DNA from: Escherichia coli
GTDB lineage: Bacteria > Pseudomonadota > Gammaproteobacteria > Enterobacterales > Enterobacteriaceae
DNA: 64,000 bases
Strand: one strand, 5' to 3'
Assembly (NCBI RefSeq): GCF_003790525.1
Contig: NZ_CP033635.1
Part shown: positions 12,696 to 54,208 of the stretch, one piece after another
Layout of the letters: every line of letters begins with the position of its first letter
How positions within the stretch are numbered: position 1 is the stretch's first letter
Translations under genes and position numbers: made by a program
Notes under the pieces: generated by a model
Told to the model about the DNA's origin: nothing
The model's database searches: none
Seen by the model: the letters and a program-made list of their open reading frames with translations, nothing else

Positions 12696-12807
12696 CCCCG
12701 GCTAGACCGGGGTGCGCGAATACTGCGCCAACACCAGGGAAATCTTGGCTGCGCCGTAAATTATTATGATGAGTTACAAGGGCACAGCACTGTTTTTCAG
12801 GCCGCAC
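12687..12807 (-). ncRNA. arcZ: small RNA ArcZ (RyhA/SraH), 121 nt, overlapping the arcB 3' end
   Basis: Reverse strand reads GTGCGGCCTGAAAAACAGTGCTGTGCCC...CACCCCGGTCTAGCCGGGGTCATTTTTT, matching the ArcZ sequence as I remember it, including its terminator hairpin. Confidence 0.85.
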
Positions 12808-34277: not shown

Positions 34278-34396
34278 AATCTCGCGCTAACAACCTGGAA
34301 TCGAGCCGTCATACTACGGCGCAACGCCCTATAAAGTAAACGATGACCCTTCGGGAACTTCAGGGTAAAATGACTATCAAAATGTGAATTGTAGCT

Positions 34397-34431
34397 GACC
34401 TGGGACCTGTACCCGGGTCGGTATTTTTTTT
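34397..34431 (+). terminator. intrinsic terminator/attenuator in the greA leader (GraL-type leader RNA)
   Basis: gaccuggg / cccggguc 8-bp stem with one G-U pair, then 8 T's, about 95 nt upstream of the greA start. Confidence 0.6.
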
Positions 34432-41082: not shown

Positions 41083-41169
41083 GCCGAGGTGGTGGAATTG
41101 GTAGACACGCTACCTTGAGGTGGTAGTGCCCAATAGGGCTTACGGGTTCAAGTCCCGTCCTCGGTACCA
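41083..41169 (+). tRNA. leuU: tRNA-Leu (anticodon GAG), 87 nt with encoded CCA
   Basis: GCCGAGGTGGTGGAATTGGTAGACACGCTACCTTGAGGTGGTAGTG...GGTTCAAGTCCCGTCCTCGGTACCA; long variable arm, cloverleaf foldable by eye. Confidence 0.93.
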
Positions 41170-44951: not shown

Positions 44952-45028
<77 letters not shown>

Positions 45029-45150
45029 CTTTCCCTTAGAGTCCTTTTTCAAATATACTGTGAAGACTTCGGCCTTCGTAGTGGGATTTGAAAAAATCCT
45101 TCTGGAAAGTGCTCCAGACCGCAGTTGCGGTTATAGGGTTCAGTTATATA

Positions 45151-45175
45151 AAGCCCCGATTTATCGGGGTTTTTT
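45151..45175 (+). terminator. hairpin plus T-run between metY and rimP (partial terminator/processing site)
   Basis: aagccccga-ttta-tcggggtt followed by TTTTT; a second weaker hairpin plus T7 lies at about 45199..45217. Confidence 0.6.
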
Positions 45176-45234
45176 GTTATCTGACTACAGAATAACTGGG
45201 CTTTAGGCCCTTTTTTTATGTCTTGGGGGTGGGC

Positions 45235-49899: not shown

Positions 49900-49916
49900 G
49901 GTTTTTAGGGTTCCAT

Positions 49917-49986
49917 GCGGGATAAGGCGTTTACGCCGCATCCGGCATGGATTGCCTGATGCGACGCTGGCGCGTCTTATCAGGCC
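49917..49986. repeat. REP/BIME element (two inverted REP units) in the infB-rbfA spacer
   Basis: gcgggataaggcgtttacgccgcatccggca followed by gcctgatgcgacgctggcgcgtcttatcaggcc, both classic E. coli REP consensus sequences. Confidence 0.85.
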
Positions 49987-50464: not shown

Positions 50465-51408
50465 TGAGTCGTCCTCGTCGTCGCGGTCGCGACATTAACG
50501 GCGTTTTGTTGCTGGATAAACCGCAGGGGATGTCCAGCAACGATGCGCTGCAAAAAGTGAAACGGATTTATAACGCCAACCGTGCCGGGCATACCGGTGC
50601 GCTGGACCCGCTGGCGACCGGCATGTTGCCGATTTGCCTCGGGGAAGCGACGAAGTTTTCCCAGTATCTGCTGGACTCCGACAAACGCTATCGGGTCATT
50701 GCGCGTCTTGGACAGCGTACCGATACGTCTGATGCCGACGGACAAATCGTTGAAGAACGTCCGGTAACCTTTAGTGCAGAGCAACTGGCGGCGGCACTGG
50801 ATACTTTCCGTGGCGATATCGAACAGATCCCTTCGATGTATTCAGCACTGAAATACCAGGGCAAAAAACTGTACGAATATGCGCGTCAGGGCATTGAAGT
50901 TCCGCGTGAAGCGCGCCCGATTACCGTTTATGAATTGCTGTTTATTCGCCACGAAGGCAATGAGCTGGAGCTGGAAATTCACTGCTCAAAAGGCACTTAT
51001 ATCCGCACCATCATTGATGACCTGGGTGAAAAACTCGGTTGTGGCGCGCATGTTATTTACCTGCGTCGTCTGGCGGTAAGTAAATATCCGGTTGAACGGA
51101 TGGTGACCCTGGAACATCTGCGTGAACTGGTTGAACAAGCCGAACAGCAGGATATTCCAGCCGCGGAGTTACTTGATCCATTACTGATGCCAATGGACAG
51201 TCCAGCTTCGGACTACCCGGTGGTGAATCTTCCGTTAACGTCTTCTGTTTACTTCAAAAATGGTAACCCGGTTCGTACATCCGGTGCGCCGCTGGAAGGA
51301 CTGGTTCGCGTTACAGAAGGTGAGAACGGCAAGTTTATCGGTATGGGCGAAATTGACGATGAAGGCCGCGTCGCGCCTCGTCGCCTGGTGGTTGAATACC
51401 CGGCGTAA
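50464..51408 (+). CDS. truB: tRNA pseudouridine-55 synthase
   Basis: 314-aa ORF with catalytic motif [12 protein letters not shown]. Confidence 0.96.
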
Positions 51409-51419
51409 TGTTAACCGTC

Positions 51420-51448
51420 TTGCGATAACAGGTCGCTACGAGTAGAAT
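51420..51448 (+). promoter_or_regulatory. rpsO promoter (TTGCGA, 17-nt spacer, TAGAAT)
   Basis: Hexamer match about 110 nt upstream of the rpsO start. Confidence 0.5.
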
Positions 51449-51460
51449 ACTGCCGCTTAA

Positions 51461-51826
<366 letters not shown>

Positions 51827-51842
51827 TTCTTGCGAGTTTCAG

Positions 51843-51870
51843 AAAAGGGGGCCTGAGTGGCCCCTTTTTT
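51843..51870 (+). terminator. rpsO intrinsic terminator
   Basis: aaaa-ggggcc-tgagt-ggcccc followed by TTTTTT. Confidence 0.8.
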
Positions 51871-51920
51871 CAAGCTGACGGCAGCAATTCACTGGAAACT
51901 AATGTATTGTTGCTATGAAT

Positions 51921-52017
51921 GATCTTCCGTTGCAGAGGTTCGCGCGGCTAATGAGAGGCTTTACCCACATTGGGCTGGGTTAGGGTTGTCATTAGTCGCG
52001 AGGATGCGCAGAAGATC
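51921..52017 (+). promoter_or_regulatory. long imperfect stem in the pnp 5' leader (RNase III autoregulatory processing hairpin)
   Basis: gatcttc (51921..51927) pairs with gaagatc (52011..52017) closing an about 95-nt structured leader; function assigned from knowledge of E. coli pnp. Confidence 0.45.
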
Positions 52018-52072
52018 GGGTATTAACACCAGTGCCGTAAGGTACTGTCTAAGAAAGAGAAAGGATATTACA

Positions 52073-54208
52073 TTGCTTAATCCGATCGTTCGTAAATTCC
52101 AGTACGGCCAACACACCGTGACTCTGGAAACCGGCATGATGGCTCGTCAGGCTACTGCCGCTGTTATGGTTAGCATGGATGACACCGCGGTATTCGTTAC
52201 CGTTGTTGGCCAGAAAAAAGCCAAACCAGGTCAGGACTTCTTCCCACTGACCGTTAACTATCAGGAGCGTACCTACGCTGCTGGTCGTATCCCGGGTAGC
52301 TTCTTCCGTCGTGAAGGCCGCCCAAGCGAAGGCGAAACCCTGATCGCGCGTCTGATTGACCGCCCGATTCGCCCGCTGTTCCCGGAAGGCTTCGTCAACG
52401 AAGTTCAGGTTATCGCCACCGTGGTTTCTGTTAACCCGCAAGTTAACCCGGATATCGTCGCGATGATTGGTGCTTCCGCAGCACTGTCTCTGTCTGGTAT
52501 TCCGTTCAATGGTCCGATTGGTGCTGCCCGCGTAGGTTACATCAATGACCAGTACGTACTGAACCCGACTCAGGACGAGCTGAAAGAGAGCAAACTGGAT
52601 CTGGTTGTTGCGGGTACTGAAGCCGCTGTACTGATGGTTGAATCTGAAGCTGAACTGCTGAGCGAAGACCAGATGTTGGGCGCAGTAGTGTTTGGTCATG
52701 AACAACAGCAGGTTGTCATTCAGAACATCAATGAACTGGTGAAAGAAGCCGGTAAACCGCGTTGGGACTGGCAGCCGGAGCCGGTAAACGAAGCGCTGAA
52801 CGCGCGCGTTGCTGCACTGGCTGAAGCTCGTCTGAGCGATGCTTACCGCATCACCGACAAACAAGAGCGTTATGCGCAGGTTGATGTCATCAAATCTGAA
52901 ACCATCGCGACGCTGCTTGCTGAAGATGAAACCCTGGACGAAAACGAACTGGGTGAAATTCTGCACGCTATCGAGAAAAACGTTGTTCGTAGCCGCGTAC
53001 TGGCAGGCGAACCGCGTATCGACGGTCGTGAAAAAGATATGATTCGTGGTCTGGATGTGCGTACTGGCGTGCTGCCGCGTACTCACGGTTCTGCGCTGTT
53101 CACCCGTGGTGAAACTCAGGCGCTGGTTACCGCAACGCTGGGTACTGCACGTGACGCGCAGGTTCTTGATGAACTGATGGGCGAACGTACTGACACCTTC
53201 CTGTTCCACTACAACTTCCCTCCGTACTCCGTAGGCGAAACCGGCATGGTCGGTTCTCCGAAGCGTCGTGAAATTGGTCACGGTCGTCTGGCGAAGCGCG
53301 GCGTGCTGGCAGTCATGCCGGATATGGACAAATTCCCGTACACCGTACGTGTGGTGTCTGAAATCACCGAATCCAACGGTTCTTCTTCTATGGCTTCCGT
53401 GTGCGGCGCGTCTCTGGCGCTGATGGACGCAGGTGTGCCAATCAAAGCTGCCGTTGCGGGTATCGCAATGGGTCTGGTGAAAGAAGGCGACAACTACGTT
53501 GTACTGTCTGACATTTTGGGCGACGAAGATCACCTGGGCGATATGGACTTCAAAGTTGCGGGTTCCCGCGACGGTATCTCTGCATTGCAGATGGATATCA
53601 AAATTGAAGGTATCACCAAAGAGATCATGCAGGTTGCACTGAACCAAGCTAAAGGTGCGCGTCTGCATATCCTGGGCGTAATGGAACAGGCGATCAACGC
53701 GCCGCGCGGCGATATCTCTGAGTTCGCTCCGCGTATCCATACCATCAAGATCAACCCGGACAAGATCAAAGACGTTATCGGTAAAGGCGGTTCTGTTATC
53801 CGTGCTCTGACCGAAGAAACTGGCACCACCATCGAAATCGAAGATGACGGTACTGTGAAAATCGCAGCGACCGACGGCGAGAAAGCGAAACATGCTATTC
53901 GTCGTATCGAAGAGATCACAGCAGAAATCGAAGTGGGCCGCGTCTACAATGGTAAAGTGACCCGTATCGTTGACTTTGGCGCATTTGTTGCCATCGGCGG
54001 CGGTAAAGAAGGTCTGGTACACATCTCTCAGATCGCTGACAAACGCGTTGAGAAAGTGACCGATTACCTGCAGATGGGTCAGGAAGTACCGGTGAAAGTT
54101 CTGGAAGTTGATCGCCAGGGCCGTATCCGTCTGAGCATTAAAGAAGCGACTGAGCAGTCTCAACCTGCTGCAGCACCGGAAGCTCCGGCTGCTGAACAGG
54201 GCGAGTAA
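52073..54208 (+). CDS. pnp: polynucleotide phosphorylase (711 aa, UUG start)
   Basis: ORF contains (M)[30 protein letters not shown]...; the start is TTG at 52073, in frame with track ORF 51986..54208. Confidence 0.95.

Follow-up and report, generated by a model that had tools for sequence, protein, structure and literature searches.

The spacer between rpsO and pnp in Escherichia coli raises the question of how much of its conserved sequence belongs to the leader of the pnp message and how much to SraG, the small RNA encoded on the opposite strand, and of where exactly that RNA and the pnp reading frame begin. We addressed this question in a stretch of 64,000 nucleotides, referred to here as the window, from the strain with assembly GCF_003790525.1 (contig NZ_CP033635.1), combining RNA folding, signal scans, Rfam searches and comparison with related genomes with the published experiments on the K-12 locus.

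The locus and its match to K-12

The window is E. coli chromosome: of the 5426 complete E. coli genomes, 5424 match a query of 1001 bases (51400..52400) along 80% or more of the query, many of them with 100% identity, and the genes found there are always truB, rpsO and pnp. An ungapped comparison of 51400..52482 with K-12 MG1655, in which the window position and the K-12 position add up to 3363241, revealed two mismatches: where K-12 has an A, the window has T at 51971 and G at 51973. Both sit in the 8-nt loop that caps the RNase III hairpin of the pnp leader and is also the loop of the SraG hairpin, and no effect on the stem is predicted. From 51974 to 52482 the two sequences are identical, a segment that takes in the SraG start site and both hexamers of its promoter.

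The spacer itself (51827..52072) is 246 nt long and its elements are collected in Table 1, together with those of the flanking genes. The terminator, the RNase III hairpin, the UUG start and SraG have all been characterised experimentally before, the region being already known and indeed textbook material. Accordingly, we read the whole of it as the E. coli rpsO-pnp intergenic control region, and it is almost certain that each element works as published for K-12; nothing in the sequence of the window contradicts this reading, and on the strength of the near-identity the strain probably behaves as K-12 does.

Further elements lie around the spacer. The S15 autoregulatory leader extends over the rpsO start (51499..51613, Rfam RF00114, 117.6 bits), and a promoter-like TTGCGA-17-TAGAAT at the end of truB (51420..51448) is likely to be rpsO P1. 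Other Rfam matches above the gathering score in the window are to the ArcZ sRNA, the greA leader, two tRNAs, the rimP leader and naRNA4, at 12700..12807 (minus strand), 34308..34429, 41083..41166, 44952..45025, 45117..45217 and 49916..49986, which is consistent with a K-12-like metY-nusA-infB-rbfA-truB-rpsO-pnp neighbourhood.

Table 1. Elements of the rpsO-pnp control region, in window coordinates, with the evidence for each
Feature	Position	Strand	Evidence
rpsO CDS (ribosomal protein S15)	51557..51826	+	ORF list; agrees in position with the K-12 and RefSeq annotations
rpsO stop TAA	51824..51826	+	sequence
GAGTTTC, between rpsO stop and T1 (probable RNase E site)	51834..51840	+	columns invariant or at least 90% conserved in the 44-species alignment
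T1, bidirectional intrinsic terminator (rpsO on +; SraG terminator and 3' end on -)	51843..51870	both	fold, scan, alignment, PMC5029454
pnp P2 promoter region and start site	51875..51918	+	position downstream of T1 (PMC5029454); +1 predicted
Stem-loop R, RNase III processing and autoregulatory hairpin of the pnp leader	51921..52017	+	fold, alignment, RNAalifold, literature
Small hairpin in the processed pnp 5' UTR (7 pairs, GUAA loop)	52030..52047	+	fold, z -1.1; both-side changes
pnp Shine-Dalgarno AAGGA	52061..52065	+	sequence; conserved in alignment
pnp CDS (PNPase, 711 aa), TTG start	52073..54208	+	K-12 (NP_417633.4) and RefSeq annotations; relatives; published toeprint and mutant
sraG primary transcript, 216 nt	52058..51843	-	K-12 b4449 (3311183..3311398) mapped; cRT-PCR in PMC5029454
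Older 174-nt SraG form (SraG-S)	52016..51843	-	essentially the part modelled by Rfam RF00082
PSraG -10 region TGTAATAT, overlapping hexamers TGTAAT (52072..52067) and TAATAT (52070..52065)	52065..52072	-	hexamer scoring
Candidate PSraG -35, TTTACG, in pnp codons 7-8	52096..52091	-	best hexamer combination; putative

Terminator and processing hairpin of the pnp leader

On the plus strand the terminator T1, AAAAGGGGGCCTGAGTGGCCCCTTTTTT, forms a hairpin with 12 pairs and a folding energy of -19.9 kcal/mol (z -3.8 against shuffles); read on the minus strand, it folds at -15.7 kcal/mol. Its layout, AAAA-GGGGGCC-TGAGT-GGCCCC-TTTTTT, places an A tract and a T tract round a G+C-rich stem as expected of a bidirectional terminator, and the published work describes T1 as the terminator common to rpsO and sraG (Fontaine et al. 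2016, PMC5029454); the 3' end of K-12 sraG maps to 51843. The U run after the stem is shorter on the minus strand (4 U). The terminator scan reports the element on the minus strand, as GGGGCCACTCAGGCCCC followed by CTTTTCTG. Its absence from the plus-strand list is a tool artefact, since there the extension of the stem runs through the A and T tracts and uses up the T run. Between the rpsO stop and T1, the motif GAGTTTC is more conserved than the flanking sequence in an alignment of 44 non-redundant Enterobacterales rpsO-pnp spacers, in which RNAalifold also recovers T1 across species. RNase E cuts upstream of T1 (PMC5029454), and GAGTTTC is probably the site at which it initiates decay of the rpsO mRNA.

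Downstream of T1 lies the promoter P2 (PMC5029454), for whose hexamers a consensus scan gives weak candidates only. We estimate its start at about 51914..51918, with an uncertainty of a few nucleotides, from two derivations that differ slightly. The published 38-nt spacing of the RNase III cuts, taken with the pairing register and a 2-nt 3' overhang, leads to 51914/15, while the in vitro pnp RNA of positions 1-234, which ends at nucleotide 79 of the ORF (PMC5029454), leads to 51918.

Stem-loop R follows directly. The segments gatcttc (51921..51927) and gaagatc (52011..52017) pair to close an imperfect hairpin of 37 pairs with its apical loop at 51968..51975, and none of 200 shuffles is as stable as this fold (-47.6 kcal/mol, z -5.1). 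It is a long imperfect stem in the pnp 5' UTR, 3' of T1 and P2 and 5' of the Shine-Dalgarno sequence, and related genomes keep its structure on the pnp-sense strand, with substitutions that compensate one another. It is thus the same hairpin, in the same place between T1/P2 and the pnp start, as the autoregulatory stem-loop described by Portier, Regnier, Jarrige and colleagues, with a stem identical to that of K-12 and the two apical-loop substitutions given above as the difference. RNase III makes two cuts in it, 39 and 77 nt from the P2 start (PMC5029454), which by the same spacing, register and overhang would fall near 51953 and 51991. A first reading of the sequence (hereafter the earlier note) had placed the rpsO terminator at 51843..51870 and had taken the gatcttc/gaagatc hairpin for the RNase III autoregulatory site of pnp. 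The fold, the minus-strand terminator scan and the published work bear out the first assignment, and the fold, the literature and the conservation across the 44 spacers bear out the second.

The alignment supports the E. coli structure as a whole, with 88.6% of cells paired against 40-49% when the partners are slid, and with changes on both sides at 27 pairs. In stem-loop R, which RNAalifold recovers independently, pairing reaches 96.8% of cells for the upper helix and 94.9% for the lower one, with compensatory changes such as the exchange of GC and AU at columns 159/242, seen in 10 sequences. It is mainly the lower stem and the apex that vary and compensate, and none of the 44 spacers departs from TTCGCGCGGCTAATGAGAG and TGTCATTAGTCGCGAGGATG in the central arms. 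When the two strands are folded separately, all 44 species have the more stable hairpin on the plus strand (mean -47.1 kcal/mol, against -29.8 kcal/mol on the minus strand). The structure has therefore been selected in the pnp mRNA, and the alternative that it was selected for SraG rather than for pnp is rejected on these grounds. The count of G·U against A·C pairs (221 vs 17) points in the same direction, but it is biased, the structure having been derived from the plus strand.

The invariance of the arms of R, about 20 nt each across the 44 spacers, exceeds what the recognition of double-stranded RNA by RNase III needs, and hints at a further reader that recognises the sequence itself, possibly CsrA at GAGGAUG. 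The motif GAGGATG (52000..52006) in the 3' arm is invariant in nearly all Enterobacterales spacers, includes an ATG in frame with pnp at 52004, and resembles the CsrA binding consensus, RGGAUG. As a candidate CsrA site it would be single-stranded only once RNase III and PNPase had done their processing, which would fit the published behaviour of CsrA.

Between R and the Shine-Dalgarno sequence, the small hairpin of Table 1 varies on both sides at all 7 of its pairs across genera; its single-sequence fold is not significant, and its complement falls in the SraG-specific 5' 42 nt. The length of the spacer also varies. In some genera the spacer reaches 300-357 nt, the additional 50-110 nt lying 5' of the hairpin in Kluyvera and Pseudocitrobacter, in the apical loop in Dickeya and Xenorhabdus, and rarely downstream, as in Serratia; in nearly all others, 79-93 nt separate the 3' core of the hairpin from the pnp start.

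SraG on the opposite strand

On the minus strand, the Rfam family RF00082 matches 52014..51843 with 162.2 bits (E 7e-31) along all 177 positions of the model, above its gathering threshold of 50 bits. The model covers only the older 174-nt form of SraG, so that the functionally essential 5' 42 nt of the full RNA (52017..52058) lie outside the match. The primary transcript measures 216 nt by cRT-PCR, begins with a T located 42 nt upstream of the old 5' end, and ends at T1 in reverse (PMC5029454). In the window, this start is the complement of A52058, and the RNA reaches 41 nt past hairpin R. The element lies between rpsO and pnp on the opposite strand and has its terminator in common with rpsO; its promoter and start would be those mapped in K-12, given the identical sequence there. 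Except for 51971 and 51973 the sequence is that of K-12 b4449, and between the window and the known SraG (also PsrO) we see no difference of substance in locus, strand, ends or sequence.

The earlier note had expected SraG antisense across the pnp leader from the literature, had left its ends unplaced, and had proposed an alignment with K-12 and a reverse-strand Rfam search. Both of these place SraG here, with b4449 at the corresponding coordinates, and the ends can now be given as 52058..51843. It had also held that the expectation would fall if 51850..52050 contained neither an Rfam match nor promoter or terminator signals on the reverse strand. The promoter lies at about 52065..52096, outside this interval, and the test, taken literally for the promoter, would fail for a real gene.

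The SraG start lies 7 nt downstream of the end of the hexamer TAATAT. The -10 region of PSraG sits between the pnp Shine-Dalgarno sequence and the TTG, abutting the start codon. In the published work, the SraG 5' end and the -10 mutation are close to the Shine-Dalgarno sequence without overlapping it, and the mutation removes the 216-nt RNA (PMC5029454). The best minus-strand combination in hexamer scoring is TTTACG (4/6) with TGTAAT (5/6) and an 18-nt spacer. A generic sigma-70 promoter scan found no promoter on the minus strand; we do not count this against SraG, because the -35 is weak and the best -10 variant, TGTAAT, fails the position-2 rule of the scan.

Two other features of this strand deserve mention. 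An ATG-initiated ORF of 58 codons (51961..52137, minus strand) runs antisense to the pnp start region; it is a mechanical ORF only, and it begins upstream of the SraG start site, hence not within the 216-nt RNA. A longer antisense transcript has been predicted to start 339 nt upstream of PSraG (PMC5029454), which corresponds to about 52397 in the window.

How far the Rfam match itself speaks for an antisense RNA is a separate matter. RF00082 matches the antisense strand in all ten genera tested (96-161 bits), including Enterobacter (two loci) and Raoultella (one locus), which have TTCTGT or TTCTAT in place of the E. coli -10 box. Among 114 Enterobacterales loci, the exact TAATAT is found at this position in 38 and an acceptable -10 in 47, or in 80 when shifts of up to 2 nt within the AT-rich stretch are allowed. 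The model spans the terminator, the P2 region and hairpin R as they appear on the antisense strand, and each of the three owes its conservation to the sense strand. Since matches occur without the E. coli -10 box, a match alone is no evidence of antisense transcription.

This leads to the most serious of the competing explanations, namely that the minus-strand signal merely mirrors the conserved pnp leader hairpin and the rpsO terminator, antisense transcription being negligible noise. Besides the ten genera, the selection of the hairpin on the pnp-sense strand in 44 of 44 species agrees with it, as do the poor expression of SraG and the small effect of losing its promoter, which raises pnp mRNA and PNPase only about 1.3-fold (PMC5029454). 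Nevertheless, we consider it unlikely. The 216-nt RNA was mapped by cRT-PCR in K-12 and N3433 and is lost on mutation of the -10. SraG is fully complementary to the pnp leader and requires its 5' 42 nt for function; in vitro, the 30S toeprint on pnp disappears with the full-length RNA and persists with the 174-nt form, and overexpression of the full-length RNA, again unlike the shorter form, lowers pnp mRNA and PNPase (PMC5029454). K-12 and N3433 are identical to the window here apart from the two loop bases. The case for SraG in the window rests on sequence identity with strains in which the RNA has been measured, and by that identity SraG is presumably transcribed in the strain of GCF_003790525.1 too. 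It is conceivable, if rather doubtful, that only Escherichia and those genera retaining a TAATAT-type -10 box beside the pnp start have a functional long SraG, in which case many of the Rfam 'SraG' matches in other Enterobacterales (Enterobacter, Raoultella, Kluyvera and others) would be mere mirror images of the conserved pnp leader and terminator.

A second explanation, which we judge slightly less probable still, accepts the RNA and holds that it acts mainly in trans on unlinked mRNAs, as in Yersinia pseudotuberculosis, the overlap with pnp being incidental. SraG is listed among the ProQ-associated antisense RNAs. It binds Hfq with sub-nanomolar to nanomolar affinity, and Yersinia SraG regulates the YPK_1206-1205 operon (PMC5029454). 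In E. coli, however, target prediction followed by microarray and Northern tests of ten candidates yielded no trans target, and deletion of hfq left both the SraG levels and the effect on pnp unchanged (PMC5029454). A search for literature on SraG after 2016 gave almost solely unrelated uses of the acronym.

The reading we retain, a cis-acting antisense RNA of pnp, has known counterparts. Like the antisense RNAs of the pairs AsflhD/flhD, GadY/gadXW and SymR/symE, SraG is perfectly complementary to a 5' region, forms a duplex cut by RNase III, and lowers the translation or stability of its target; unlike them, it faces a leader with an RNase III hairpin of its own and has a bidirectional terminator in common with the upstream gene. 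Antisense transcription at the same junction, rpsO-pnpA, is known for RliD in Listeria and ref41 in Enterococcus (PMC5029454), with no sequence similarity to SraG reported.

The start of pnp

Translation of pnp starts at TTG 52073. Both the K-12 annotation (NP_417633.4) and the RefSeq annotation of an identical strain map the start to this position, and AAGGA lies 7 nt upstream, the correct spacing for a Shine-Dalgarno sequence serving a non-ATG start. For comparison, a degenerate pattern for pnp codons 3-12, which left the start codon unconstrained, yielded 120 Enterobacterales loci, 114 of which had enough upstream sequence; the start codon is TTG in 110 of them, GTG in 4 and ATG in none. 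In the published experiments, the 30S toeprint lies 15 nt from the UUG, and changing the TTG to TGA abolishes pnp translation (Fontaine et al. 2016, PMC5029454).

The earlier note had arrived at the same codon by arguing that no in-frame ATG precedes the conserved N-terminus. The start itself stands, while the argument does not: ATG 52004..52006 is in frame with pnp, as is TTG 51986, and the first in-frame stop upstream is TGA 51920. The TTG is the start because of the annotations, the 114 relatives, the published toeprint and mutant, and the non-conserved frame of ATG 52004. Only 4 of the 114 loci have the homologue of this ATG in frame with pnp and uninterrupted by a stop; the ATG is conserved as RNA sequence and not as a codon. 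The distance from ATG to TTG varies even within Escherichia, E. coli E69 having two compensating 1-nt indels. Initiation at ATG 52004, which would lengthen the protein by 23 residues and for which the open frame down to pnp in the window speaks, is barely credible and was rejected, given its position inside the 3' arm of the RNase III hairpin, the TTG or GTG that every one of the 114 loci has where the annotated start falls, the ATG homologue that is shifted out of the pnp frame or cut off by a stop in all of them except 4, the TTG used by both annotations, and the published toeprint and mutant data.

Control of pnp and implications

Together, these elements outline how pnp would be controlled at this locus. 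The transcript ends, cleavages, toeprint and mutant effects are taken from the literature, and the sequence features, their conservation and the near-identity to K-12 come from this analysis. Transcripts from the rpsO promoter would either stop at T1 or read through into pnp, while P2 would start pnp-only transcripts just upstream of the hairpin. Once formed in the pnp leader, the hairpin would be cut by RNase III in both arms, and PNPase would then degrade the short upstream strand still paired to the new 5' end. The processed mRNA would be open to RNase E and to repression by CsrA, so that PNPase would limit its own synthesis; cleavage of the leader by RNase III is reported to trigger loss of the paired 5' fragment through PNPase, attack by RNase E and repression by CsrA (PMC5029454).

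Initiation at UUG 52073 would take place behind AAGGA, and on the other strand the weak promoter overlapping the pnp start would drive the 216-nt SraG, ending at T1 in reverse. Base-pairing by the first 42 nt of SraG, 52058..52017 in the window, stops only a few nucleotides short of the Shine-Dalgarno sequence and would block 30S binding. The duplex of SraG with the pnp message is cut by RNase III at new sites (PMC5029454), and these cuts would contribute to a modest lowering of PNPase.

A long hairpin in a 5' UTR whose cleavage by RNase III triggers decay of the downstream message is also found in the rnc leader (rncO). The parallel with pnp is an analogy only. In rnc the enzyme that cuts is itself the one regulated, whereas in pnp RNase III opens the way and PNPase closes the feedback.

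As rpsO-pnp is a classic region of post-transcriptional control, the locus carries little weight as a discovery. What the analysis adds is that it fixes the ends of SraG in window coordinates and corrects the argument for the pnp start codon. Beyond this locus, it shows that an Rfam match for a cis-antisense RNA can arise entirely from the conservation of structure on the sense strand, a general caution for the annotation of antisense RNA families.
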